From assembly GCA_016202645.1 (NCBI GenBank), contig JACQOF010000146.1, forward strand, positions 620-64,619: a stretch of 64,000 nucleotides of DNA, written 5' to 3'. Both the position numbers and the translations under genes were made by a program. A model generated the notes under the pieces. It saw nothing but the letters and a program-made list of their open reading frames with translations. It searched no databases and was not told the origin of the DNA. Positions 6,086 to 18,696 of this stretch are shown here, in pieces. Within the stretch, counting starts at the first letter, position 1. Every line of letters starts with the position of its first letter. The DNA comes from a bacterium (GTDB lineage Bacteria > Lindowbacteria > 2-12-FULL-62-27).

Positions 6086-7029
6086 ACCGATATCGAATCT
6101 GTCTCGGATTTTTGATTGTCCTGTGCCTGGCCTCCTGCGTCTCCGCCGCCGCCCGCAGTCGGACCGGAGTCAGCGCCGCCGTATTTCTGACGGATCCCGC
6201 CGGCGCCCGGTCGGTGGCCATGGGCGGCGCCGGCGTGGCGGTACCGGGGGATATTTCAGGCATTTTTTTCAATCCGGCCGGACTGGCCAGCATCGACGGA
6301 ACGGTCCTGATGGCCGAATATGACATTCGTTTCGCGGACATCCGCAAGTCGACGCTGGCGTTGAATCGAAGGATCAAAAACGGAAATCTGGGCGTCGGCT
6401 TCAATCATCTCCAGACCGGATCTCAAGACCGGACCGGCGTGACCGGCGCCGGCGCCACGGCGCAGCCGGTGGTGGGACTCGGCACGTTCGATGCGTACGA
6501 TTTCGCCGCCTCGGTCGGCTACGGGTGGCGGTGCAGTCGGAACATCAATTTCGGCGCAAACGTAAAATGGATCCGGCAGAGCATTGAATCCATCCAGGCC
6601 ACCGCCTACGCCGCGGATTTGGGAGCAATCCACTCGATGAATGTCCCCTGGTTTGACATCGCCGCCTGGGGATTGGCGGTGACGAACATTGGCACCCAGA
6701 TAAAATTCATGAAGGAGAAGGAGGACCTGCCCCGCGGATTCAAGGCCGGGATTTTTCTGACAAAATATTTTTCCCAGGACAGGTTCAACATCCTGCTGGA
6801 CATCGGCCGGAGGAAGGACGCCAACATCCACGTCAATGCGGGCGTCGAATACTGGTTCCACCGCACGCTCGCCCTTCGCGCCGGTTACAACGCACTCATT
6901 GAGAAAAGCGGGGATCTGGCGGCAGGACTGGGCATCCGGTATGGAAAAATCAGCCTGGACTACGCCTTTGTCCCGTTTACAATCCTGGACGATCAGGCCC
7001 ACCGGATGACGTTTCTCTTCCGGTTCTGA
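6082..7029 (+). CDS. PorV/PorQ-like outer-membrane beta-barrel protein
   Basis: ATG 6082 overlaps the upstream stop (ATGA). Signal peptide MNRYRICLGFLIVLCLASCVSAA. The N-terminal motif 'GARSVAMGGAGVA...GIFFNPAGLA' is typical of PorV/PorQ-family barrels. The sequence alternates like beta-strands and ends in aromatic ...FLFRF. I trimmed the 5644-6081 extension of the tracked ORF because it lies inside the upstream gene. Confidence 0.6.
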   Translation: MNRYRICLGFLIVLCLASCVSAAARSRTGVSAAVFLTDPAGARSVAMGGAGVAVPGDISGIFFNPAGLASIDGTVLMAEYDIRFADIRKSTLALNRRIKNGNLGVGFNHLQTGSQDRTGVTGAGATAQPVVGLGTFDAYDFAASVGYGWRCSRNINFGANVKWIRQSIESIQATAYAADLGAIHSMNVPWFDIAAWGLAVTNIGTQIKFMKEKEDLPRGFKAGIFLTKYFSQDRFNILLDIGRRKDANIHVNAGVEYWFHRTLALRAGYNALIEKSGDLAAGLGIRYGKISLDYAFVPFTILDDQAHRMTFLFRF

Positions 7030-7037
7030 CAAACCGG

Positions 7038-8231
7038 TCAGTCAAGATTCACCCGGACCCGGATATAGCGGGTGTCCCACGTTTCCGCGGGATGGTATTT
7101 CCATTCCGCGACGGCATTTTTCCACAGCAGGTCGATTTCCCTGAATCCCGTTGTTTTTTCGACGTCCACCGACTCGATCCGGCCCGAAGGCGCAATCAGA
7201 ACGCGGAAGAGTCCCACCGATTCGATCCCCTTTTTTTCGAACCACGGCGGGATGGCCGGATGCGGGTGATGGACAAGATTTCTGCCGCCCGTCCCCGAAG
7301 GCGCCGGGAATCCCCGGCCGGATCCCAGTTGGATCACTCCGCTGCCCATCGAGAGGTCTTCGACGGAGAATCCCGTCCCGTCCGGCCGGGATCCGCCGCC
7401 CGATCCCCGGGCGCCTTCCTCCCGGCCGGCATCGCCGCCAGTACCCACCATCGGTGTGACGCTGCCGCTCAGCAAATTCCCGCCCCCGGTGGACGACTCC
7501 GAATCAGACCCGCCCCCCGCGCCGTCACGGCCCTGTCCCCAGGAGGCCGGATTCTGACCATCGGTTTGTTTCGATCGGCCCTGACCAATCCCGCCGCCCG
7601 GAATTTCTTTTGATTTCCCCATGCCCCCGGCGCCGCCGCCGTCCCCGGCCGGCACGAAGAAGCCGGAGGCGGATGAGGGCGCCGCGCCGGCTCCGCCGCC
7701 ATTTCCACCCGGGACCAATCTGCCTCGAGAAGGCGCGGACTGAATAAGCGGAATTCCGGCAAGAGAGGCGGCCGAGGACGGCGAGCCGCCGCCGACCGAA
7801 GAGGGCGATCGTTTCGAAGCGAATTCCGCCGCGCTCTTGTCCGATGGGAGGGGCGAGAGAATCAGCGGCTCTTTTCCGAATGGCATCGCCGGCCATCCTG
7901 ACCCGGCGGGTCCGGGCCGCCGCGCCGGGATGGGCTTGTTGGAACTCACCGGCATATCAACGGTGGCCGCCGCCGGTGAACCCGATGCATCGGGACGCGT
8001 CACATCCCAAAACGCGGGGCGCCGGCCGGAGGGCGCCGGACCATCCGTTTTTTGCGATTTTTGAACCCGGGGTTTTGGCGCGGCATCGTATGCCGGGCCG
8101 ATGACTTTGACCCGCATCTTCGGAATGAGGGGTGGATACAGGGCCGCGGCGAGAACACCGAGTAAAACATAAAAAACGATTACGGCGGCCAGGGCCGACG
8201 CGGCATCGCGGTTGTTTGGGAAGACGGACAT
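7038..8231 (-). CDS. TonB C-terminal-domain protein with a long Pro/Gly/Ser-rich spacer (TonB/TolA-like)
   Basis: N-terminal TM helix (AAVIVFYVLLGVLAAALY). About 270 aa of P/G/S-rich low complexity. C-terminal 'PPWFEKKGIESVGLFRVLIAPSGRIESVDVEKTTGFREIDLLWKNAVAEWKYHP' resembles the TonB_C fold signature. Confidence 0.7.
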   Translation of the reverse strand: MSVFPNNRDAASALAAVIVFYVLLGVLAAALYPPLIPKMRVKVIGPAYDAAPKPRVQKSQKTDGPAPSGRRPAFWDVTRPDASGSPAAATVDMPVSSNKPIPARRPGPAGSGWPAMPFGKEPLILSPLPSDKSAAEFASKRSPSSVGGGSPSSAASLAGIPLIQSAPSRGRLVPGGNGGGAGAAPSSASGFFVPAGDGGGAGGMGKSKEIPGGGIGQGRSKQTDGQNPASWGQGRDGAGGGSDSESSTGGGNLLSGSVTPMVGTGGDAGREEGARGSGGGSRPDGTGFSVEDLSMGSGVIQLGSGRGFPAPSGTGGRNLVHHPHPAIPPWFEKKGIESVGLFRVLIAPSGRIESVDVEKTTGFREIDLLWKNAVAEWKYHPAETWDTRYIRVRVNLD

Positions 8232-8235
8232 CGGC

Positions 8236-8634
8236 CTAGAGCAGCGCCAAAATCACCGCGGTCAGAACCACCAGCATGCCCACGTTTAAAAAAGTTTTCC
8301 CAGGGGTGATGTCCGGTTTCTTTTTGGCGCGGAGTTCCTCAGGCGGCCGCGCCGTTCGGGCCTCATGATATTTTTCCACATCGGCGGCGGGCGATGGATC
8401 GCCCGCGGTGTCCCGCTGAATCTGGATGGCCGGCAGAATCAGACGGGTGTCGGGTTCGATGGCGGCTGATGGAGCGGACCGATCTTTTCCGATCACCGTG
8501 AATTCATCCACCTCCTCGGCCCCGCGGCTCTCCGCCGCGCATAGACAGAACCCCAGAGCGGCGATCATCGTCCTCGCCAAAATTCTCCCGCCGCCTTCCC
8601 GCATGGCCGGCCTGTTTGACCTCATCCTTTCCAT
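8236..8634 (-). CDS. Small hypothetical envelope protein (N-terminal signal/lipobox-like segment, C-terminal TM helix)
   Basis: 132-aa ORF placed 3-4 nt from both neighbours on the same strand. N-terminal 'IAALGFCLCAAE'. C-terminal hydrophobic 'FLNVGMLVVLTAVILALL'. No family recognised. Confidence 0.45.
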   Translation of the reverse strand: MERMRSNRPAMREGGGRILARTMIAALGFCLCAAESRGAEEVDEFTVIGKDRSAPSAAIEPDTRLILPAIQIQRDTAGDPSPAADVEKYHEARTARPPEELRAKKKPDITPGKTFLNVGMLVVLTAVILALL

Positions 8635-8637
8635 CTC

Positions 8638-11600
8638 TTATCGAATGGACTTTCGTATTTTTTGCGCCTGGGCGGCCTCTTTGGACCCCGGATACCTTTT
8701 GGTCATCTCCTGAATGGCGGCCATGGCTTTGTCCTTTTCTCCCAGATCAAGCCGGATGCGGATGATGCCCAGAAGCGCCGCCGGCGCGATGCCGCGGTTT
8801 TCTTCGGGAGGATAGAGGTCCAACACATTGTAATAGGCGATCAGCGCTTTTTCAGGACGATCGCTCTCCGCCTCCAGCCGGCCCAGCCGATACTGGGATT
8901 CGACGGCCAGGAGCCCGCTGTAGGTGGCCAGTTTGCCTAGAATAAGCCGGGCCTTGGGGATCTCCCTGGTCTGAATCAGCGATTCGGCGTAAATCCGGCT
9001 GACCGGGGGCTGCATGCCCACAGCTGCGACCGCGTCGAGATGCCGGACCGCCTCCGCATGATTTCCCGCCCGATGCGCCAGCCACCCGAGCGCCAGATGA
9101 TGCTCGATCTCGGAACCGTCCGGCGGCGTCTGGCCAGACAGGAATTGGAGGCCGGCCGCGTCTTCCCGCTCCACGTAAATTCCCGCTAGCCACTTGAACA
9201 ACAACCGCCGCGCGTCCGGCGAGAGGTTCGTCCGCAGGTCCCAGGCTTGCCGCAGGAGCGGTTCGGCCCGCCGGTAATTTCTTTTTGCGGATTCGTACTC
9301 TCCGAGTTTTAGCGATGCCCACGCCGTAAAAAAAGTGTCCGGCGATCTGGATTGGACCAGCGCCGAAAAATCCCGCATGGCTTTGTCCGTGTCGCCCAGG
9401 GCCAATTTGGCCACGGCGCCGTGGTATTGGACGACGGCGTCGAAAAATTTGGGATGCGGCTCCAGCTCCCGAACCAGCCCAACGGCATCCGGATGGCGGT
9501 TTTCGGTTACCGCGTCCACCACCAGTTTGCGTGAGGCGGCCCGGACCCGGTCTGGATCGAGGCTGGATCGGAGAAGTTCGCCGAGAAATCGGCGGCCCCG
9601 TTCGCCGCGGACATCGGCGAGGACCATTCGGCGGTCCAGGGCCTGATCCTTAACGGCGGCGCCGGCCGCCGGATCGTTGATGATTTGCTTGTACATCTCA
9701 TCGGCACGCCCGGTTTGACCCAGATCCTCCTGGAGAGACGCCAGCGCCAGCCTCGCCTCGGTTTTTTTATCGCCGCCCACTCCAGTCGCCGCCAGAAGTC
9801 GCTCAAGGGCGCCCGATGCCTTCGCCTTATCGCCGGATGCCAGGGCGGCCGACGCGTACACCTCCATGGCTTTTCGTTGATGGGGTTCCGACGCCAGCCG
9901 GCCGCCAAAGGCTTCATAAAATCGAACGGCTTCCCGATGCAGGCCGGCCCGATGAACGGCCGCGATACCGAATATCACCGCTTCCTCATAGAAGGGAAGT
10001 CCGGCGCCTTTTTGAAGCACCTCATCGATATGCGGCAGAATTGATCCGGTGTCACCGCGGTCCAGGAGCAGTCCCGCAAGACGATATTTGGCGGACAGAC
10101 TTACTTCCGTATCGGCGGACCGGATGAGCCGCTGATAAATATCTTCCGCGCCGTTCCGGCCCAGCTTCAGGAGGCACTCCGCCTTGTAAAAATCAGCCCG
10201 GTCCGCCGCCGGCGGACTGAACTGCGCCGGATCAACTCCATCGAGCGCGGCCAGGGCCAGATCATGGCGTTCGATGGACAAGGCGGCTTGAATCGCGGCC
10301 AGCACCAGATCCGGATCGGTCCCGTATTGCCGGAGATGCCGGACAGACTGATCATAGTGTTCTTGAGGATCGCCGCGCCGTTCCGCGATCCGGACGCGCA
10401 GTCTCGACGACTCCCGGGCAAGGCGGTGATTCGGCATTTTGTCGAGCCGGTCGAGTTTTTCCCGCGCATCGTCCAGCCGATCCATGGCAAGATACAGCTT
10501 CGCGGCCGCCAGGGCGGCGTTGGGCGCCAGAAGACCCTCCGAGGTTGTGCTCAAGTACGACTCGAACCGGTCCACGGCCTTATCCGATTGATTCAGTTTT
10601 GTGTGGCAGAGTCCCTGCGCGTAGACTGCTTCCCAGGCCCACGCCGATCCGGGAAAGCCTTCTTCCGCCTGGAGGTAAAATTTCAGGGCCGCATCAAATT
10701 GGAGTCGATTGTAGAGGCAGTCCGCATATCTCAGCGCCGATTCAGCGCGAAGTTCGGTGTCGGCATTCGCCGGCATCCGCTTAAAAATATCCGCGGCCTG
10801 CGCGTACTGCTCCTCCTTGAACCAGGTCATCCCAACCCGGTAGAGAATATGCGCCAGCGCCGCGGGATCCCGGACGGCCTTCGCATGCTTCTCGTGCAAT
10901 CTTTTCAAATCGGCGCTTCGCTCGGAACGATAGTAAAGGTCTGAAAGGACGAGGACGGTTTTGTCCAGAATCACGCGGTCGGCCGCGCTGTCTTGAAAAA
11001 TCCGGGACAACGTCTTCTCGGCGACGTCGGGACGATTCAGCAGCATCTCGACGTATCCCATGTTGTAGAGCAGGGCGGGGTGGTCCCTCAGCGCCGATTC
11101 GGATTCCACCGTTTTCAGAAGGACATTCCGGGCGCCCGGATAATCCTGACGGGTCACTTTGGTCGATACGAGATTGTCGATGGCTGCAAAATAGAGGGTG
11201 TTTTTCCGGGGATCGCCCGGAACATATCGGGCCTGCGTCAATGCGCTCCCGAACCGGCTCTCGGCTTCCTCCCAGCGGGCTTCTTCAAAGGCCAAAACGC
11301 CCAGACTGAAATGGGCGTCCATCCTCCATTTTCCGGAGGGAAATCGATTCAAATATTCCAAATAATCCCGCCGGGCGGCGGTTGGATCTTTCTCGGCCTG
11401 GGCCAATCGGGCCTGCCAGAAAAGGATGTCCGAGGCCCACAGAGCCGCGTCCGACCGAACCGCCGGCCTTTGAAGCAGATCCTGAAACATCCGCCGCGCA
11501 TCCGTGTGCCTTTGGCCTTCATAGGCCGCCAGCATGCCGTAAAAAAGAATCCGGTCGAGGGACGTGTCCGACCCCGGCAGCGCGGAACCTGCCCGCCGCG

Positions 11601-13392
11601 CGCGGTCCAGGGCTTCATCATAAAGTCCGGCATCAAAGAAGGACACTACGACAAATTGAAAACTTTGGCCGGCGGCAAGTCTCTGAAGCAGCGCGTCGGC
11701 CTGCCGTACCGCCTCCGCCGGATCGCGCTTCAGAAAACTTTCGATCAGATGGGTGTGGGCCCTGTGGATCAGATCCGGTTCCCGGGCCAGTTTGGATGCT
11801 TGGAGGTAGCGCTGGCGCGCCGCATCCGGCTGCTCCGCGGCGGCGAGAATGTCTCCCATGAGAATCAGCCCGGAGGCGCGGGCCTGCGTATCCACAGACG
11901 GCAACGCCAGCAACCGGTCCAACAGGGATTTGGCGCGGGCATGGTCGTTCAGCCTGAAATAAGCGAAAGCCGCGGCGTAAAACGCCTCACGGGCATCCGC
12001 CGGGCCGGGCCTGCCCAACAGGCGTTCAAAGGCGCCCGCCGCCTCTTGGTACCGGCCCGTCGCCAGATACAGGTTCCCGTAAAACTCATCCAGTTTTGCG
12101 CCCAGGACCGGATCCGGCTTCGTGATCCGCCCGGCCGATTCGAGGGCCCGGGAATAATCTTTTAATTGAAATTGCGCCTGGGCCAGACTCAGGAGAACAA
12201 TATTCCGCCGGTCCGGCTCAACACCGGATTCCAGGGCGGCCTGAAAGGAACGTCCCGCCTCTTCCGCGGAACCTTTCGCCAGAAAGACATGGCCTTTGAG
12301 ATAATGGAGATCATAGGTTGGGCTTGTTACCCGGCTGAGGTGGTCCAGGGCGTTGTCCATTCTTTTTAGAAGAAATTCGCCTTCCGCCAGAAACAGGCAG
12401 GCCTCGTCCTGAATGGCGGTATCCTGCGAGCGATTCGCCAGATCCAACGCCCTTCGGGCGCGGCCGCCCGACGTGTCCGGCTGGCCGGCGCGGCGGGAAA
12501 TGGCGGCCATGCGAAGCCACGCCCCGGCCTTCATTTTGACCGGGATGTGCGGCGTTTGGATCAGACGAAAAAATTCCTCCTCGGCCCGCGTGTCATTTCC
12601 CATGGACAAAAACGCCCAGGATTTGTTCCATTGCGCCGTGTCCGCCCAATTCCCGGCCGGCGTGTCCAAACCGATCACCCGGTCGTACCAGACGATGCTT
12701 TCGCCAAATTTTTTTTGCTTGAATAAAATGTCCCCGATCTCCAGCAACGCCTCCACGTGCCTGCGATGATCCGGCTCCCGGGTGAGAGGCATCAGGGCCT
12801 GGACTGCCTCCACCGGCCGGCCCGAACGGCCCAGAATGCCGCCCAGATCGTAGTGGGCATCCAGCCGGTGTTCCGGCCGCAACTTCAGATTGCCGGTGAC
12901 GGATTTCAAAACGTCCGCCGCCCGGTCCGATTCTCCAAGCCGGCCGTGGCACTCAGCGGCCAGAAGCAGGCTTTCGGCGAGGATGTCCATCTCCTCGCCG
13001 GCGTTTTGCGCTGCCGCCTGGAAATAATCGATCGCCGGCCGGAATTGCCCAAGTTGATAAGCCGCGTACCCGGCGCCGTACTGGGCTCTCGAAAGAAACC
13101 GGAATTTCGGATGCTCCCGCACGATGCGGGCGTACAGATCGTACGACCGCGCATACTCGTTCAACCGGTCGTGCGTTTCAGCCAGCCAGTAGGTTGCCTC
13201 GACCACGCGCGGATCATTCGGGTAGGTGGCGGCGATCTCCTCGAAAACCAGTTTCGCGAGCCGGTATTCGCCGCGGTTGAACAACGCAACTCCGGAATTG
13301 AATTCCCGCGGGGGAATCCGGTCCTCCGCGGCCGCTGGAGAAAGCAGGCACCAGAAAAAGAAAAGACACACAAGGACTCTGGAAGACCGCAT
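8638..13392 (-). CDS. 1584-aa secreted tetratricopeptide-repeat (TPR) protein
   Basis: Signal peptide MRSSRVLVCLFFFWCLLSPAAA. TPR-like A/Y/L-rich helical pairs run throughout. The first and last ~100 aa resemble YbgF/CpoB-type TPRs (e.g. 'ALFNRGEYRLAKLVFEEIAATYPNDPRVVEATYWLAE'). Its ATG directly follows the TAA of the upstream OmpA-like gene. Confidence 0.85.
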   Translation of the reverse strand: MRSSRVLVCLFFFWCLLSPAAAEDRIPPREFNSGVALFNRGEYRLAKLVFEEIAATYPNDPRVVEATYWLAETHDRLNEYARSYDLYARIVREHPKFRFLSRAQYGAGYAAYQLGQFRPAIDYFQAAAQNAGEEMDILAESLLLAAECHGRLGESDRAADVLKSVTGNLKLRPEHRLDAHYDLGGILGRSGRPVEAVQALMPLTREPDHRRHVEALLEIGDILFKQKKFGESIVWYDRVIGLDTPAGNWADTAQWNKSWAFLSMGNDTRAEEEFFRLIQTPHIPVKMKAGAWLRMAAISRRAGQPDTSGGRARRALDLANRSQDTAIQDEACLFLAEGEFLLKRMDNALDHLSRVTSPTYDLHYLKGHVFLAKGSAEEAGRSFQAALESGVEPDRRNIVLLSLAQAQFQLKDYSRALESAGRITKPDPVLGAKLDEFYGNLYLATGRYQEAAGAFERLLGRPGPADAREAFYAAAFAYFRLNDHARAKSLLDRLLALPSVDTQARASGLILMGDILAAAEQPDAARQRYLQASKLAREPDLIHRAHTHLIESFLKRDPAEAVRQADALLQRLAAGQSFQFVVVSFFDAGLYDEALDRARRAGSALPGSDTSLDRILFYGMLAAYEGQRHTDARRMFQDLLQRPAVRSDAALWASDILFWQARLAQAEKDPTAARRDYLEYLNRFPSGKWRMDAHFSLGVLAFEEARWEEAESRFGSALTQARYVPGDPRKNTLYFAAIDNLVSTKVTRQDYPGARNVLLKTVESESALRDHPALLYNMGYVEMLLNRPDVAEKTLSRIFQDSAADRVILDKTVLVLSDLYYRSERSADLKRLHEKHAKAVRDPAALAHILYRVGMTWFKEEQYAQAADIFKRMPANADTELRAESALRYADCLYNRLQFDAALKFYLQAEEGFPGSAWAWEAVYAQGLCHTKLNQSDKAVDRFESYLSTTSEGLLAPNAALAAAKLYLAMDRLDDAREKLDRLDKMPNHRLARESSRLRVRIAERRGDPQEHYDQSVRHLRQYGTDPDLVLAAIQAALSIERHDLALAALDGVDPAQFSPPAADRADFYKAECLLKLGRNGAEDIYQRLIRSADTEVSLSAKYRLAGLLLDRGDTGSILPHIDEVLQKGAGLPFYEEAVIFGIAAVHRAGLHREAVRFYEAFGGRLASEPHQRKAMEVYASAALASGDKAKASGALERLLAATGVGGDKKTEARLALASLQEDLGQTGRADEMYKQIINDPAAGAAVKDQALDRRMVLADVRGERGRRFLGELLRSSLDPDRVRAASRKLVVDAVTENRHPDAVGLVRELEPHPKFFDAVVQYHGAVAKLALGDTDKAMRDFSALVQSRSPDTFFTAWASLKLGEYESAKRNYRRAEPLLRQAWDLRTNLSPDARRLLFKWLAGIYVEREDAAGLQFLSGQTPPDGSEIEHHLALGWLAHRAGNHAEAVRHLDAVAAVGMQPPVSRIYAESLIQTREIPKARLILGKLATYSGLLAVESQYRLGRLEAESDRPEKALIAYYNVLDLYPPEENRGIAPAALLGIIRIRLDLGEKDKAMAAIQEMTKRYPGSKEAAQAQKIRKSIR

Positions 13393-13989
13393 TTACCGCC
13401 CGCCCTCCACAACGATGAATTCGGTCCGCCGGTTCGCTCGACGGCCCTCCGGCGTCTGAAAGGACGCCACGGGTTTCGACATCCCCCATCCAACCGCTTC
13501 CAGCCGGTTCGGCGCGATGCCGTGGGATTGGATCAGCCGGGTTTTCAGGGCCTCCGACCGGCGCCGGGAAAGTTCAAGATTATAGGCTGGGGCGCCGTAG
13601 GAATCCGTGTGGCTTTCGATTCGAATTCGGAGAGATGGAAATGTCCGGAGCGTGTCGGCGACGGTATTCAAGATCGGCTTGACCTCCTCCGGAATACCCT
13701 TGATGTTGACCCCAAAGTAAAGGATCGGAAACACCGGTTCGGCCGCGGCGCCGGCCTCAGCCGCATCCGAATCCGCGACCTCCGCCGGCCATCGATCGGA
13801 AATGTGACCCAGGTCGTATGTGCTCCGGGCGCCGCGATGGACATCATCCCGGCCGGTCGCAGTTGTTCTGTGGACGGCGGTGCAGGCGGACACACAAAAA
13901 ATCATGGCCGAAAAAAGCGCCAAATATCCCGCGGTCACCAAGCTGATGCGGGGAAATTTGATTTGGCGACCATGCACGCATAGAACCAC
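13393..13989 (-). CDS. OmpA-family / Pal-like peptidoglycan-binding lipoprotein
   Basis: Lipobox-like 'IFCVSAC'. The C-terminal OmpA_C pattern is 'RIRIESHTDSYGAPAYNLELSRRRSEALKTRLIQSHGIAPNRLEAVGWGMSKP...RRANRRTEF'. Confidence 0.85.
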   Translation of the reverse strand: MVLCVHGRQIKFPRISLVTAGYLALFSAMIFCVSACTAVHRTTATGRDDVHRGARSTYDLGHISDRWPAEVADSDAAEAGAAAEPVFPILYFGVNIKGIPEEVKPILNTVADTLRTFPSLRIRIESHTDSYGAPAYNLELSRRRSEALKTRLIQSHGIAPNRLEAVGWGMSKPVASFQTPEGRRANRRTEFIVVEGGR

Positions 13990-14007
13990 AAACGCGCAGG
14001 GTGGTCA

Positions 14008-15615
14008 ATGCCTGGGGTATTTCGGAAAGGGAGGGGGGTCCATCTATTGATGATTTCCCGGCCCCCGTGGTACACCGAAAGCATGTCCAATCCGCTCGAC
14101 AGTTTGTCCAGGCTCAGAAAGGCGGCCAGGGCCGGCGCGTGGTTCCGGGACGTGCGGCTCGTCTATCAGGGGTTTGGGCCGCTGGCCGCTCACATGTTTC
14201 ATCATTTCATGCCCGTCTCCGGGATAGTCGCGAATTTTTACGGGGAGGACGTCCAGACTTACATCGAGAAGGGCTGGGGGACGCCCGTGTTTTCGTATGA
14301 GGCGATGAAGGGCGTGCGGCATAATTCCGTGAATCTCTTCAACGATTATTTCTACAAGGACCACGGCGATGAGATCGCCCGGAAATTCAACAGGCTGGAC
14401 GGGACGGTCTGCTTTGCGCCGTTCAATACGACTCCGGCTCTCCATGATTTTTTGTTTTCCCACGGCCGGCACTACCGTCTCCTGCAAAATCCCGTCATCG
14501 TCCAGAATTACTTCGACTACAAAGCCCGCCTCGCCTGGCGCGCAGCGGAGATCGGCATTCCGATTCCGCCCGAAAGCGAAGTGAGTCTCTTCGGCGAACT
14601 CGACTACAAGCGGCTCCGCGACCGGTACAAGGGCAGTTTCGTGATTCAGATTCCGCTGTCGACGGCCGGCAGCGGCACCGATTTTGTCCATTCAGAGGAT
14701 GACTTCAAGGAAATTTGCGAGCGCCGCCGGAAGGAGTTCGGGAAGATGTTCGAAAAAACACAGGTGAAAATCACGCCGTACATGGCCGGGCCAAGCCTGA
14801 ACTGCACCGCCTGCGTGATCAACGGCGAGGTGGCGCTGTCCCAGCCCGACATCCAGATCGTCGGCGATCCGGCCATGGTCTCGACCGCCGGGCAGTACAT
14901 CGGGTCGGATTTTTCACAGCACGCAATCCCCGCGCGCATCCGGAAACAAATCCTGGACGCGATGCTCAAAACCGGCCGGTGGATGGGCGCGCACGGGTAT
15001 CGCGGGAATTTCGGCCTCGATTTCCTGACGACGACCGACAAGACCGGCCGGGTGGACGCCATCTACGTGAGCGAAATCAACGCGCGTCTCGTCGGCGAGT
15101 CCCAGTACATGGCTGATTTCCAGGCGATGAAAAACGTCGTGCCCCTGACGTTTTTTCACCTCGCTGAATTTCTCGACCTCGACATCAAACCCGCCTGGGT
15201 CCGCGCCTACAACCGCGCCCTGCCGGCGATCGAGGGATCAGCCCTGCTTGTCTACAACCGCCGGAAAGGAACCTTCCGAAGCCCCGGGAAACTCACGACC
15301 GGCATCTACCGGATGCGGGACGGCAGGCTCGAACGGATCCGCGACGGGTATCTTTTGTCCGAGACCAAATCCTCCGACGAGTTCGTCATCACCAACGGCA
15401 CCCCTTGGAAAGACCTCGTGATCGGCCACCCCCGGTACGGCGACTCGGAAGTATTCCTCTGCTACATCATGACCCGCGAGAGCATTGTCGACCCGAAAAA
15501 CTGGCGCCGGGTAAACGACAAATGGCGCGGCCTCACGGACATCGTCCGGGACGCGATCCATCTGGAGCCCTGCCCGTACCGATCTCTGGCTGAAGAACGC
15601 TCATACGCGCCTTGA
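14008..15615 (+). CDS. ATP-grasp-fold enzyme of unknown substrate
   Basis: 535-aa ORF. The central and C-terminal region has ATP-grasp-like elements ('FVIQIPLSTAGSGTDFV', 'GNFGLDFL', 'YVSEINARLVGES'). The start is ambiguous: ATGs at 14008, 14050 and 14083. Confidence 0.55.
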   Translation: MPGVFRKGRGVHLLMISRPPWYTESMSNPLDSLSRLRKAARAGAWFRDVRLVYQGFGPLAAHMFHHFMPVSGIVANFYGEDVQTYIEKGWGTPVFSYEAMKGVRHNSVNLFNDYFYKDHGDEIARKFNRLDGTVCFAPFNTTPALHDFLFSHGRHYRLLQNPVIVQNYFDYKARLAWRAAEIGIPIPPESEVSLFGELDYKRLRDRYKGSFVIQIPLSTAGSGTDFVHSEDDFKEICERRRKEFGKMFEKTQVKITPYMAGPSLNCTACVINGEVALSQPDIQIVGDPAMVSTAGQYIGSDFSQHAIPARIRKQILDAMLKTGRWMGAHGYRGNFGLDFLTTTDKTGRVDAIYVSEINARLVGESQYMADFQAMKNVVPLTFFHLAEFLDLDIKPAWVRAYNRALPAIEGSALLVYNRRKGTFRSPGKLTTGIYRMRDGRLERIRDGYLLSETKSSDEFVITNGTPWKDLVIGHPRYGDSEVFLCYIMTRESIVDPKNWRRVNDKWRGLTDIVRDAIHLEPCPYRSLAEERSYAP

Positions 15616-16287
15616 GGGTTTGACAGTCTGTCCCGCGGGCGATTCGGCGTCCGAATACGCCGCCTCAAGGTCCAGGACGAATTGCCGGACATGTTTTTCG
15701 AAAAATCGTTTGATCGTCTCCCACTTCACGCCGGCGCCGATGTAGACGGGATCGGGAGACGCTTCGGCATCATCGAAGTAAACAAGCGATTTTCCGACGG
15801 CCACGGTGGACAGCGCCGTTCCATATCTGGATTTGATGGTTTCAGCGATCTTTCCGAAAGGGATATTTTGCAGAATGAAGTAGAGGTCGACGAAGTCGCG
15901 TTTCGCGCCTCGTTGCGAGATCGCGGCCGCTTTCATCGAGGCGATGTCCAGAACGCCGGCGACTTTGACCCCCTCAAAAACATCCGTGTGAATAAAAGGA
16001 TAAGGATACCGAAATAACGAAAATTTTGATCCTGGAAATGTCACGATGAATGTGTCGTCTCTGGCCAATTCGATTTCCGGGTCAAGTCCCAATTTCCCGA
16101 CCTCCGCAAGAATCCGCCGCGCGTTGACTTTTTCAGGCGTGAAGAAATCAAAATCGAACGAGAATCTGTGCGCCAGCCGGATCGCCAGAGCCGTGCCTCC
16201 GGCCAGGACGGCTCCGTGCCGCCGGGCAATCGGCGCAAGATTCCGAAAAAGCCGCAAGGCCCCGGCCGTCAGGCAGCGTCTATCCAT
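15601..16287 (-). CDS. Nucleotidyltransferase AbiEii/AbiGii-family toxin (type IV toxin-antitoxin)
   Basis: 'GAVLAGGTALAIRLAHRFSFDFDFFTP' and 'KAAAISQRGAKRDFVDLYFIL' match the AbiEii-type nucleotidyltransferase pattern. It overlaps the upstream small gene by 8 nt. Confidence 0.7.
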   Translation of the reverse strand: MDRRCLTAGALRLFRNLAPIARRHGAVLAGGTALAIRLAHRFSFDFDFFTPEKVNARRILAEVGKLGLDPEIELARDDTFIVTFPGSKFSLFRYPYPFIHTDVFEGVKVAGVLDIASMKAAAISQRGAKRDFVDLYFILQNIPFGKIAETIKSRYGTALSTVAVGKSLVYFDDAEASPDPVYIGAGVKWETIKRFFEKHVRQFVLDLEAAYSDAESPAGQTVKPSRRV

Positions 16288-16672
16288 CCAGCCACACCCG
16301 CCAAAAGTTTCTCGATATCGGAGAGATCGCGCGGGACTCGTCGTTTACCCGCCGGATCAAGTGCCCGGGGTAAACGCGGCAAATCCAGAGGAACGCCGAA
16401 TAATTTCCAAGTTCCAGGATGCGCTCGATGACGTATTTGCGGTGCCGCCGCAGGTCGATCTTCCGGGAGTCGGTGTCCCAGAAGAACCGGCTGAACCGTT
16501 CCGGCACGGCTGCCGTCTCCCGGAACGCCGAAATTTGCGCGGCCACCGCCGGATCGCCCGCCCGGCCCAGATAGACATGCCGCACCCGGCGTCCCTCGCG
16601 GACGACCCGGTAGGCGTATTCGCGTTTGCCGATCCTGCGGATGAGAATGCTCATGTTGGACCGATTATACAC
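16280..16672 (-). CDS. Putative cognate antitoxin of the AbiEii-like toxin
   Basis: Small ORF directly upstream of the toxin and overlapping it. 'FFWDTDSRKIDLRRHRKYVIERILELGNYSAFLWI...FW' resembles partner proteins of AbiEii toxins, from memory. The start is either GTG 16672 or, more likely given the promoter below, ATG 16654. Confidence 0.5.
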   Translation of the reverse strand: MYNRSNMSILIRRIGKREYAYRVVREGRRVRHVYLGRAGDPAVAAQISAFRETAAVPERFSRFFWDTDSRKIDLRRHRKYVIERILELGNYSAFLWICRVYPGHLIRRVNDESRAISPISRNFWRVWLDG

Positions 16673-16692
16673 TACAATGTTGTGTAAATCAA
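16664..16692 (-). promoter_or_regulatory. Sigma70-like promoter TTGATT-17-TATAAT with a 19-bp imperfect palindrome in the spacer
   Basis: Read on the minus strand: TTGATT (16692-16687), a 17-nt spacer, TATAAT (16669-16664). The palindrome TACACTACA-A-TGTTGTGTA (16668-16686) fills the spacer. The ATG at 16654 is only 9 nt beyond the -10 box. Confidence 0.4.
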
Positions 16693-16785
16693 CGCCCTGG
16701 TCTTTTCTCTCTCCTCCGGCACGAATCCTCCCATCGCTCGATCGGGCTATTGATGAAATCCCGGCCGCCGTGATACATCAAAAAA

Positions 16786-18696
16786 ATGGATTTACCTGTT
16801 CGCAGGATTGTGGAACGCGTGGGGCCGAATCGGCTCTATGTCGAGGGCGCGGCGCCGGAGACGGCGGATCCGGCCCGCCCCGCGCTTTTATTTGTCGGAG
16901 GATCCTTTGACGGCAGTTGGATCTTCCGGGAGGAAGCTTCGTTTTTCGCGTCGAGGGGCTGGCCAGTCTACGCCATCAATCCCCGCGGATTTTATCTCAG
17001 CCGGTATCGCGGCGTCGCGGGACTCACGATCGAAGATTACCTCGAGGACATCCGGACCGTCCGGGAGAGTCTCGGCTTAAACCGCGTCATCCTTGCCGGG
17101 TACAGCATGGGGGGCCTGCTCATGCTCAAACACGCCGAACGCCACGGCGCGGAGGGCCTGATCCTGTACGACAGCGACGCGACCCGGGAAGTGTGGGACG
17201 CGTCCGGCCGGCCGCGTCACGTTCCGCACGTTCCGCCGGTTGTCGAGTTCTGGCCGTCGCCCGCGATCGTGGACGAGATGTGGGGCGGCCACACGAGCCG
17301 CCGGCAGTACCGGGCATTTCTGGATCTCTTCAAACAGACCCGGGTGTCCGGGCAGTGTTTCCGCCTGACCGAACACGGCGGCTTCGACGTCGATCTCGGC
17401 CGGGTCCGGTGTCCGGCCCTGATCATCGGCATTCGCAAGGACGAAAAAACCTTGGAGGAATATTTCAAACGGCTGAACGCCGCGTGGCTGGTCTTCGAGG
17501 GCAGTTCGCACGGGAGCATTCTCGTCGGGCCGCGGTCGATGGCGATCACCGAGGAAGTCGCCCGGTGGCTGGAGGCCGGCTGTCCGACCGGCGACCGCCG
17601 GATTTTTCCGCACCTGGGGTTTGTTTCCTGGGACCGGCAGATTTACCGGATGAGGCTGTCCTATCTTTCCGGATGGCACCGACCCGAAGTCGTGATCCCT
17701 CTTCCCGGATCGAAACCTCCCGCGAAAATTCCGATGGAACGGGTGGGGGACGGCCGGGAGGCGGGAGAGGCGCTGTATCGGGCGACGTTCACGCTGAGCC
17801 GCAAGTCCGGGTTTTACGTCCGGGACGGCGGGGGCGTGGACCGTCCGCCGGGCGCGGGCCTCTATCGCCCCCTGGCGCGGGAAATCCATCTGGCCGACGG
17901 CGAATTTTTCCCATACCGGCCGTCCCTGAAAAAACCGAAAATCCCGCAGTACCGCACGCTGAAAATCTTTTCGAAAGTACTTCATCACCACTTCGTCGCC
18001 CACGTCATGGTCCCCCGAAACTACAGCGCGGAGCACGGTCCCTACCCGGTCGCCGTTTTGAACGACGGGCAGAACCAGTGGAAAAATCGGGGCGCCATGG
18101 GCGGCTGGCACACCAACTCCACAGCGTCCGCGCTGGTCCGCAAGGGCCGCTGCCGGGAGATGGTCCTGGTCGGCGTTGAATCGACGCGGCTCAATCGCAA
18201 TCAATACTATTTGACCCCGCCGGCCGGCCGGGGCGATCTCTATGTGGATTTCCTGGCCGACGTTCTCCTGCCGGCGCTCCGCCGCGACTACCACATCGCC
18301 GACCGCCCCGACGACATCGGCATCATCGGGTCTTCCTACGGCGCCCACAGCGCGGTCTACGCGGGACTCAAACGCCCGGACGTCTTCGGCCTCATCGGGT
18401 CCCTCTCCTACGCCCCGGTCAAAGGCCGCCCGATCGTCGACTGGTTCCGGAAAGCCACGCGCCTGCCCTTCAAAAAACTTTATCTCGACTGCGGAACGCG
18501 CTGGACCCCCCACCAAAAAGGCCACCGCACCGACAACACCGCCGTCACCCTCGCCCTCATCCGCGCGGCCCGATCCAAAGGCCTCCGGGACGGCCGGTCC
18601 CTCATGGGCTGGATCGTCCCGGGCCACTGCCACGACGAAACCTTCTGGAGAAAACGCATCGGCAAGTGCCTGGAATTTCTCTTTCCGCTGATCTGA
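16786..18696 (+). CDS. Two-domain alpha/beta-hydrolase + esterase (esterase-D/enterochelin-esterase-like) fusion protein
   Basis: Two separate nucleophile elbows: N-terminal 'LAGYSMGG' and C-terminal 'IGIIGSSYGAHSAVYAG'. The C-terminal half has the 'putative esterase' layout, with an Ig-like pre-domain followed by the hydrolase. Confidence 0.7.
   Translation: MDLPVRRIVERVGPNRLYVEGAAPETADPARPALLFVGGSFDGSWIFREEASFFASRGWPVYAINPRGFYLSRYRGVAGLTIEDYLEDIRTVRESLGLNRVILAGYSMGGLLMLKHAERHGAEGLILYDSDATREVWDASGRPRHVPHVPPVVEFWPSPAIVDEMWGGHTSRRQYRAFLDLFKQTRVSGQCFRLTEHGGFDVDLGRVRCPALIIGIRKDEKTLEEYFKRLNAAWLVFEGSSHGSILVGPRSMAITEEVARWLEAGCPTGDRRIFPHLGFVSWDRQIYRMRLSYLSGWHRPEVVIPLPGSKPPAKIPMERVGDGREAGEALYRATFTLSRKSGFYVRDGGGVDRPPGAGLYRPLAREIHLADGEFFPYRPSLKKPKIPQYRTLKIFSKVLHHHFVAHVMVPRNYSAEHGPYPVAVLNDGQNQWKNRGAMGGWHTNSTASALVRKGRCREMVLVGVESTRLNRNQYYLTPPAGRGDLYVDFLADVLLPALRRDYHIADRPDDIGIIGSSYGAHSAVYAGLKRPDVFGLIGSLSYAPVKGRPIVDWFRKATRLPFKKLYLDCGTRWTPHQKGHRTDNTAVTLALIRAARSKGLRDGRSLMGWIVPGHCHDETFWRKRIGKCLEFLFPLI

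Follow-up and report, generated by a model that had tools for sequence, protein, structure and literature searches.

An envelope operon of Lindowbacteria that is very probably a motor-less paralogue of TonB-like modules built on giant TPR proteins

In diderm bacteria, the outer membrane is supplied with energy by 5:2 proton-driven motors (ExbBD, TolQR and AglRQS) that work with periplasmic transducers. Many such motor systems are still uncharacterised, with genes for tetratricopeptide repeat (TPR) proteins recurring alongside them (PMC12204202); the occurrence of TPR genes next to TolQR-like motors and new types of transducer is an established pattern, seen in the PVC group among others (PMC12204202; Williams-Jones et al. 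2025). The same study treats the histidine of the SHLS motif (S-x3-H-x6-L-x3-S) in the transmembrane helix (TMH) of the transducer as a hallmark of motor binding, and uses the concept of a 'motor box', a strand that follows the TMH. In an AlphaFold model of the Agl–Glt machinery of Myxococcus xanthus (PMC11761067), GltD forms a TPR pillar that is wrapped by the disordered region of GltG, and the TonB-type C-terminal domain (CTD) of GltG docks there; a β-strand of the small protein GltF pairs with this CTD, and the C-terminal helix of GltF lies in the TPR crevice. The Glt 'core complex' also occurs outside gliding bacteria, with no known function there (PMC3169522). Here we analyse a four-gene operon (P0001–P0004) with comparable parts, located in a 64,000-nucleotide stretch of DNA (the window; C124:620–64619) of the 2.9-Mb metagenome-assembled genome (MAG) G000 of Lindowbacteria. 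The operon encodes an OmpA_C lipoprotein, a 1584-aa TPR protein, a small secreted protein and a TonB-like transducer, and is very probably a motor-less paralogue of a module family that is represented twice more in the same genome, both times with ExbB and ExbD.

The operon was compared with G001, G002 and G003, which belong to one family and are the sole close relatives among GTDB species representatives (one of the three is Candidatus Lindowbacteria RIFCSPLOWO2_12_FULL_62_27; G003 has 6% contamination). The sampled lineage comprises four genomes and a few contigs that are kin, so that synteny counts are not independent; as G000 is 82% complete, the absences of TolB, SprA and a lipoprotein termed p204 are to be read as 'not found' only.

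Operon organization and motor-bearing paralogues

Four packed minus-strand open reading frames (ORFs) make up the operon, with intergenic gaps of 0, 3 and 4 nt. A preliminary description, made from the letters of the window, had reported four same-strand genes 0–4 nt apart and named their products as an OmpA_C anchor, an all-TPR protein, a small tail-anchored protein and an inner-membrane spacer protein with a TonB_C-like end; profile searches and hydropathy agree with these part types. The features are as follows (positions in the window).

13393..13989, minus strand: P0001, OmpA_C peptidoglycan-binding lipoprotein, 198 aa (PF00691, E = 8e-20)
8638..13392, minus strand: P0002, secreted all-TPR protein, 1584 aa, with a signal peptide ending AAA/ED (TPR Pfam families)
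8236..8634, minus strand: P0003, small secreted protein, 132 aa as called; signal peptide, then a disordered stretch, then a hydrophobic helix at the C-terminus
8473..8514, minus strand: conserved motif EEVDEFTVIGKDRS at the predicted mature N-terminus of P0003 (alignment of the small proteins)
8239..8304, minus strand: C-terminal hydrophobic helix of P0003, a candidate tail anchor or TPR-groove-docking helix (Kyte–Doolittle hydropathy, AlphaFold2 (AF2))
7038..8231, minus strand: P0004, TonB-like transducer with a TMH, a Gly/Ser/Pro/Ala-rich linker and a TonB-type CTD, 397 aa (hydropathy, profiles, AF2/Foldseek)
8121..8210, minus strand: TMH of P0004 with an R-D-x-x-S...F signature (alignment; hydropathy of residues 8–37)
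8097..8117, minus strand: predicted short β-strand MRVKVIG after the P0004 TMH, resembling a motor box (from the alignment)
7041..7280, minus strand: TonB-type CTD of P0004, residues ~318–397 (AF2, Foldseek)

G000 encodes two paralogues of P0003, each immediately upstream of an ExbB gene. They belong to two modules, here called types B and C, the arrangement in the window being type A:

C124:99919–109578: type B module, encoding a 1631-aa TPR protein, a small protein, ExbB (187 aa), ExbD (140 aa), a 306-aa TonB-like protein and a five-POTRA Omp85 protein
C106:93447–102763: type C module, encoding a 1599-aa TPR protein, a small protein, ExbB, ExbD, a TonB-like protein and a 693-aa TPR protein, which is followed by a small predicted barrel

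P0002–P0004 have, in order, every feature by which we define the module: a colinear TPR protein of ~1600 aa, then a small protein carrying ExTVxGxD[RK]S, then a TonB-like protein whose TMH has RDxxS. Over ~1590 aa the TPR giants align colinearly, with 30–36% identity between type A and either B or C and 53% between B and C. Type B occurs in all four genomes, with ExbB proteins that are 80–84% identical, and type C in G000 and G003. The Omp85 protein after type B is the only BamA detected in G000, and type B of G001 sits between mcsB–clpC and BamA, which suggests that the motor-bearing type B module has a housekeeping outer-membrane role. The type C modules of G000 (C106:93447–102763) and G003 (C70; L017) are 90–95% identical, whereas the type B proteins of the same genomes are only ~60–80% identical; this sequence similarity points to recent horizontal transfer or to a mis-binned contig in G003.

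The type A order (TPR, small and TonB-like genes) recurs in G001, in G003, where it opens a contig, in G002, where it is divided between two contig ends, and in an unrelated metagenome contig (L026), and no motor gene lies between the small and TonB-like genes at the type A loci of G000, G001, G002, G003 or L026. On this evidence the operon is very probably a motor-less paralogue of the module family. As the preliminary description had noted, the window itself yields no match for ExbB, ExbD, TolQ, TolR or TolB (profiles MotA_ExbB, ExbD and TolB_N); the nearest motor pair is that of type B, at C124:105497–106215, and the whole of G000 gives no match to TolB_N (PF04052). Its suggestion to look for the motor genes elsewhere was rewarded by the ExbB–ExbD pairs within types B and C. 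The re-ordered Tol–Pal module that it had seen does not hold as a stand-alone unit, since the operon is one of three paralogous modules of which two have ExbB–ExbD. There are five ExbB–ExbD pairs in G000, each with an adjacent transducer, which leaves no orphan motor as a candidate for type A. Other MotA-like matches are a MotA/MotB pair (C41), a MotA-like gene (C85) and an ExbB-like plus an ExbD-like ORF in an operon with CobN and a TonB-dependent transporter (TBDT) on C17. TBDTs number only two in G000, and each lies just downstream of a canonical ExbB–ExbD–TonB set with S-x3-H in its TonB, so that the TPR-giant modules are unlikely to be nutrient importers.

In G001, G002 and G003 the type A TonB-like gene is followed by a gene for a lipoprotein of 204–212 aa (p204), 42–43% identical among the three:

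L028:12140–12754, L013:3038–3664 and L012:9402–10040: p204 lipoproteins of G001–G003

p204 has no Pfam match, and tblastn found no homologue of it in G000. The relatives have p204 in place of the OmpA_C gene, which is not conserved at the locus; the conserved unit therefore comprises three genes together with a lipoprotein partner that varies. The synteny expected for all four genes was accordingly found for the TPR, small and TonB-like genes in all relatives examined and failed for the OmpA_C gene.

The TonB-like protein

P0004 has a single N-terminal TMH, a linker composed of 21% Gly, 14% Ser, 11% Pro and 11% Ala, and a C-terminus for which a TonB_C fold had been proposed. Searched as a single sequence, it matches the TonB_C hidden Markov model (HMM; PF03544) weakly (19.1 bits; cut-off, 24.6), whereas the type B paralogue clears TIGR01352 (35.9 bits versus 27.1). 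A profile of the type A, B and C C-termini, which align with 13 invariant positions, matched in the PDB only TonB chains (best E = 3.5e-6). AF2 modelling of the last 130 residues gave a domain with pLDDT scores (predicted local distance difference test) of 84–93, and the top 16 Foldseek matches in the PDB were all TonB/FusB CTDs, with target-normalised TM-scores of 0.54–0.82 and root-mean-square deviations mostly of 1.8–4.1 Å (7.8 Å for one nuclear magnetic resonance model). TonB structures matched at E ~1e-3 and TolA domains only at E > 1. The C-terminus of P0004 is thus modelled as a TonB-CTD fold, in keeping with the proposal.

R8, S12 and F20 of the TMH are invariant in the alignment of types A, B and C, and an equivalent alternating strand follows the TMH in all of these proteins (for example, RTLTVRF, RAIAVRF and EVRIKII). 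The TMH contains no histidine and does not carry the SHLS motif, and the same is true of types B and C; the three canonical TonB proteins of G000 (C17, C146 and C99) have S-x3-H. A word-seeded search with the P0004 C-terminus returned only P0004 itself, and a scan of genome contigs with a back-translated pattern of the type B/C CTDs returned, besides Lindowbacteria, only three TonB loci of the ordinary kind, from Synergistaceae, a gammaproteobacterium and Steroidobacteraceae. The one locus inspected, that of Steroidobacteraceae (L025), resembles an ordinary tonB–exbB–exbD–exbD locus, judging from ORF order and sizes alone, and was dropped.

The small protein

The true start of P0003 is probably Met11 (position 8604), giving 122 aa as in database entry P0017 and widening one intergenic gap to ~33 nt. 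The family has no Pfam or NCBIfam match. A word-seeded search of 5.8 billion proteins placed it in 14 clusters, and a family HMM run against 1.84 billion representatives gave nine matches, seven of them true members and the other two sharing a short motif only; the family was seen only in Lindowbacteria-type sequences. Its members share an AxA-type cleavage site, ExT[VI]xGxD[RK]S directly after it, a Lys/Glu/Pro-rich region and a hydrophobic or amphipathic C-terminal helix. In P0003, AF2 gives disorder for residues 42–81, a weak helix for 82–94 and a confident helix for 111–131 (pLDDT 82–92). The last coincides with a Kyte–Doolittle peak of 2.48 at residues 111–132, and the two methods fit the tail-anchored character that had been ascribed to this protein; type A orthologues have a shorter amphipathic segment, WKLxLLIGLLES, at this position.

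Within the conserved N-terminal motif, T46, G49, D51 and S53 are invariant among the small proteins of types A, B and C, and in G000 the strict pattern ExTVxGxD[RK]S is confined to the small proteins of types A and B. The motif resembles a TonB box and is a candidate β-strand ligand, which we offer as a lead only; the TonB boxes of the two TBDTs of G000 read LPEVVVTASR and LPTVQVTATR. It is likewise similar to the TolA-binding N-terminus of mature TolB. An unrelated 441-aa protein in the representative library (P0023) contains six tandem copies of ELPEVTVVG(K/Q)DKSKPN, which include the same short motif, and this sharing suggests a portable linear ligand.

The TPR protein

Numerous TPR Pfam families match P0002 from end to end, and a stop-free frame of 1584 codons at 61% GC would arise by chance with P ~4e-22. 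The CpoB/YbgF likeness that had been claimed for both ends is present: TIGR02795 (YbgF) is best matched at residues 30–96, and the CpoB model PRK10803 matches residues 1498–1579. The TIGR02795 score of 198.6 bits passes the cut-off only by summing six TPR stretches, and the form of CpoB/YbgF itself (~260 aa, with a coiled coil and short TPR) is not that of P0002, with its 1584 aa and TPR throughout. P0002 is colinear over its full length with its orthologues in G001 and G002 (38–39% identity) and with its paralogues of types B and C (30–31%), and is presumed to be a periplasmic scaffold. A word-seeded search of the 5.8 billion clustered proteins gave one full-length true orthologue, the rest being generic TPR proteins. 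From the word-seeded searches with the P0004 C-terminus and P0002, no wider family was traceable by sequence.

The OmpA_C lipoprotein and flanking DNA

P0001 has a signal peptide, a VSAC lipobox (Cys near residue 36) and an HTD...RRR peptidoglycan-binding motif. The OmpA_C and lipobox parts of its earlier designation as 'Pal-like' stand; it scores below the cut-off of the Pal model TIGR02802 (65.9 bits; cut-off, 125), and the relatives' type A loci lack it. No orthologue of P0001 lies beside the type A modules of G001–G003, and in G001 the gene upstream of type A is bacA, on the opposite strand. The best matches to P0001 in the relatives sit elsewhere and are orthologous to another paralogue on contig C95 of G000, with which they share DxDxDG...CP, a thrombospondin-type Asp-rich motif. 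From these sequence comparisons, P0001 is a G000-specific addition to the module, outside the conserved unit.

A Shine–Dalgarno-like ggaggg lies within the 3' end of P0001 just before the ATG of P0002, and a scan of positions 6800–14400 for promoters and terminators gave no excess over the shuffled expectation. The GTG start of P0001 is only 18 nt (window positions 13989–14008) from the start of a divergent 535-aa ATP-grasp-like ORF, a spacing that would put promoters inside coding sequence unless one of the two starts is miscalled. A minus-strand 258-aa ORF at 6256–7032 was rejected as a fifth gene or p204 equivalent: p204 has no tblastn match in G000, and the DNA here is accounted for by the plus-strand PorV-like gene that covers it.

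Comparison with known envelope systems

The architecture of Agl–Glt has its counterpart here in a TPR protein of large size, a secreted small protein that is mostly disordered and a protein with a TMH, a disordered region and a TonB-type CTD, encoded in the same order, with a TolQR-type motor elsewhere or adjacent. GltD, GltF and GltG parallel P0002, P0003 and P0004 (PMC11761067), and P0003 is, like GltF, mostly disordered with a C-terminal helix; the comparison with Myxococcus Glt in the preliminary description was apt. The match is one of design and is not evidence of homology. AglR acts there together with AglQ/S, whereas the paralogous modules here have one ExbB and one ExbD; P0004 lacks the FHA and ZnR cytoplasmic domains, the TPR protein here has 1584 aa, and no equivalents of GltA/B/H/K or CglB were identified here. 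The GltC model NF033756 reached 12.1 bits against a cut-off of 450, and the AgmX/PglI tail model NF033768 did not match P0004 and gave 22.1 bits against 40 for type B.

With Tol–Pal/CpoB the operon shares an OmpA_C lipoprotein, a YbgF-type TPR protein and an inner-membrane transducer with a CTD of the TolA/TonB family, and, by analogy, TolA binds the N-terminus of TolB much as P0004 is proposed to bind the N-terminal strand of a partner. It differs in that TolB was not found, the operon lacks TolQR, the relatives do not conserve the Pal-like gene, P0002 has ~6 times the length of CpoB and the CTD is structurally nearer to TonB than to TolA. Canonical TonB–ExbB–ExbD systems with a TBDT likewise have a TonB-CTD fold, a single N-terminal TMH, a disordered spacer and a candidate box on the N-terminus of the partner; P0004, by contrast, has no SHLS histidine, no apparent TBDT partner and a linker rich in Gly/Ser rather than Pro, and its candidate ligand is a 12-kDa tail-anchored protein instead of a barrel plug.

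In the clusters of the PVC group and others (PMC12204202), a 5:2-type motor and a transducer with a TMH, a linker and a globular CTD are encoded in synteny with a TPR gene that is uncharacterised, as in the Lindowbacteria modules. The transducers there end in vWA and keep the SHLS histidine, whereas those here have a TonB-type CTD and no histidine; the Lindowbacteria modules have, in addition, a dedicated small protein and one motor-less paralogue. A further TPR-plus-motor module recurs in two Phycisphaerales MAGs (L036 and L037), which encode in one cluster a BlaR1/M56-like or unannotated protein of ~1150 aa, a TPR protein of ~1050 aa, ExbB and ExbD, followed by a PD40/CarboxypepD_reg protein of 1535–1604 aa.

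A likeness to the type IX secretion system (T9SS) accessories PorE and PorW/SprE had also been suggested, and TPR and OmpA_C parts do occur here near a cargo protein of the T9SS-CTD type and a PorV-like barrel. This likeness is weak. The domains are on separate proteins, the neighbourhood is unconserved, the PorE and PorW/SprE models fall far below their cut-offs (NF052230, 49.1 bits versus 600; NF052312, 74.3 bits versus 250), and SprA was not detected, the only match in G000 to SprA/Sov (TIGR04189) being one of 13.6 bits. The T9SS-like cargo pair said to lie tail-to-tail with the operon does exist, as a convergent 2019-aa protein and a PorV-like barrel; these neighbours are not conserved at the relatives' type A loci. 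G000 as a whole encodes at least 11 giant proteins with a Por_Secre_tail CTD above the curated cut-off and 4–6 PorV/UPF0164-like barrels, and in G002 a 2075-aa protein (L012:3095–9322) has local similarity to the 2019-aa fn3/Ig cargo protein of the window. On contig C99 of G000 (~9500–17800), one strand encodes a 3268-aa Por_Secre_tail cargo protein, a PorV-like barrel, ExbB, ExbD, a TonB with an SxxxH TMH, a ~1000-aa TPR protein, a 405-aa protein, a small TPR protein and an AmiC-type amidase. This cluster may be the Tol-like system of the lineage or a motorised cargo/PorV unit, and is a better Tol-like candidate than the type A operon.

With the GltC, AgmX/PglI-tail, Pal, PorE and PorW models all failing, the Glt, Tol–Pal and T9SS systems are design analogues, and not families that include this operon; the nearest analogues are Tol–Pal/CpoB and the GltD–GltF–GltG core. 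As a whole, the preliminary description keeps its parts list, the TonB-CTD fold and the analogy with Glt, and loses the Pal-like gene as a conserved part and the stand-alone Tol–Pal module; the link to T9SS is weak.

Proposed mode of action and alternatives

From the observed gene content, paralogy, synteny, TonB-CTD fold and restricted distribution we infer the following contacts, mode of energisation and role. The ancestral order of this Lindowbacteria-specific family would have been TPR giant, small protein, (ExbB, ExbD), TonB-like protein and outer-membrane partner. P0004 would be anchored in the inner membrane, with its disordered linker crossing the periplasm and its TonB-type CTD capturing the N-terminal ExTVxGxD[RK]S strand of P0003 by β-strand addition. 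P0002 would serve as the scaffold on which the P0004 linker and the C-terminal helix of P0003 dock, as in GltD–GltG–GltF, and the assembly would be tied to the outer membrane or peptidoglycan by P0001 in G000 and by the p204 lipoprotein in the relatives. P0004 would then probably be driven in trans by the ExbB–ExbD of type B or C, as it retains both the signature in the TMH and the strand after it that the motor-linked paralogues have. The role is probably envelope tethering or outer-membrane maintenance, and not nutrient import. Taken as a whole, this picture of a periplasm-spanning, motor-less connector energised in trans by a paralogue's ExbB–ExbD is the one that we favour, tentatively and with slightly less than even confidence.

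Several observations weigh against it. The TMH of P0004 is without the SHLS histidine that the literature takes as the hallmark of motor binding, and as the motor-adjacent paralogues also lack it, the family as a whole may couple in an unconventional way or not at all. The likeness of the P0003 motif to a TonB box was judged by eye. The G000 copy is also divergent: its P0004 CTD is 44–49% identical to the other type A CTDs, compared with 62–75% for type B in the same genome pairs, and its linker is shortened and Gly/Ser-rich (a 397-aa protein versus ~590 aa in relatives), with a truncated cytoplasmic N-terminus. Such divergence could reflect a changed or relaxed function. The same trend is seen in the TPR giants (G000 versus orthologues, 38–39% identity; G001 versus G002, 56–57%) and in the CTD tree, in which type A of G000 is the longest branch. 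With p204 missing, an OmpA_C lipoprotein present, the P0003 tail more hydrophobic and the copy an outlier, the G000 lineage has remodelled the module. Among G001–G003, type A CTDs are 59–64% identical, comparable to type B (58–71%), which indicates purifying selection on the motor-less module.

The operon might instead encode a passive tether, that is, a static strut that never engages a motor, with the loss of ExbB–ExbD marking a switch to pure scaffolding. The lack of motor genes at every type A locus seen, the missing SHLS histidine, the far longer type A linkers (proteins of ~590 aa in relatives, versus 305–318 aa for type B) and the gain of a peptidoglycan-binding lipoprotein in G000 would all suit such a strut. 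Yet the TMH signature and the post-TMH strand are retained across lineages, the motor-adjacent paralogues are equally without the histidine, and a tonB gene unlinked from exbBD is commonplace, as in Escherichia coli. We regard a passive tether as unlikely, although a serious contender.

Another possibility is that the module helps to display, or energises, the neighbouring giant CTD protein through the PorV-like barrel, in a T9SS-like manner and with no detectable SprA. In its favour, the operon is convergent with the 2019-aa fn3/Ig protein, which has a weak T9SS-type CTD, and with the PorV/UPF0164-like barrel; the C99 locus groups a CTD cargo protein, a PorV-like barrel, ExbB, ExbD, TonB and a ~1000-aa TPR protein on one strand; the type A operon of G002 is followed on the same strand by the 2075-aa protein; and G000 has its at least 11 Por_Secre_tail proteins while SprA was not found. 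Cargo and PorV-like genes do not, however, adjoin type A in G001, G003 or L026, and with at least 13 such cargo genes in a 2.9-Mb genome their adjacency may plausibly be due to chance. The PorE and PorW/SprE scores (49 versus 600 bits; 74 versus 250 bits) also speak against this explanation, and in an 82% complete genome the absence of SprA is not established. We consider it distinctly improbable.

The G000 copy could also be a decaying duplicate that lost its motor and is drifting towards loss with no specific function, as its rapid evolution (it is the fastest-evolving copy), the N-terminal truncation and low-complexity linker of its transducer and the missing p204 partner might be taken to indicate. 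The four ORFs are nevertheless intact, including a 4.7-kb frame (chance P ~4e-22), the genes are tightly spaced with a ribosome-binding site present, and the invariant motif residues are retained. Moreover, the motor-less state is old, being common to four genomes and one contig, and type A is conserved like type B among G001–G003. Decay is very improbable. Least probable of all is a genuine Tol–Pal system re-ordered as Pal, CpoB and TolA with tolQR elsewhere: although an OmpA_C lipoprotein, a YbgF-type TPR protein and a TolA/TonB-type protein share one operon, TolB_N is without a match in G000, the Pal model is below cut-off and the OmpA gene is no conserved part of the operon, TonB structures match the CTD at E ~1e-3 but TolA only at E > 1, the 'CpoB' is six times too long, and C99 offers a better candidate (ExbB, ExbD, a TonB with an SHLS-type histidine, a TPR protein and an amidase).

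Beyond the connector energised in trans, the Lindowbacteria modules could form a TBDT-independent class of TonB-type transducers, with the box on a small tail-anchored adaptor that links the transducer to a giant TPR scaffold and with histidine-free motor binding, in which one housekeeping copy serves BamA and outer-membrane biogenesis and the motor-less copy time-shares motors in holding or delivering giant CTD surface proteins through PorV-like barrels without SprA. So extended a scheme is rather improbable.

Implications

The operon belongs with the TPR-associated, TonB/Tol/Glt-like trans-envelope modules; what is new is the small-protein family and the split between motor-bearing and motor-less paralogues. 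Three colinear copies in one genome, two with motors and one without, amount to a natural experiment, in which the outer-membrane partner also differs from copy to copy (BamA; a TPR protein plus a small predicted barrel; a lipoprotein). The previously unnamed small-protein family has a conserved N-terminal strand that is a candidate ligand of a TonB-type domain. If the proposed contacts are true, a TonB-like domain would have been redirected from transporter plugs to a scaffold adaptor, and the Lindowbacteria modules would be an independent parallel to GltD–GltF–GltG.

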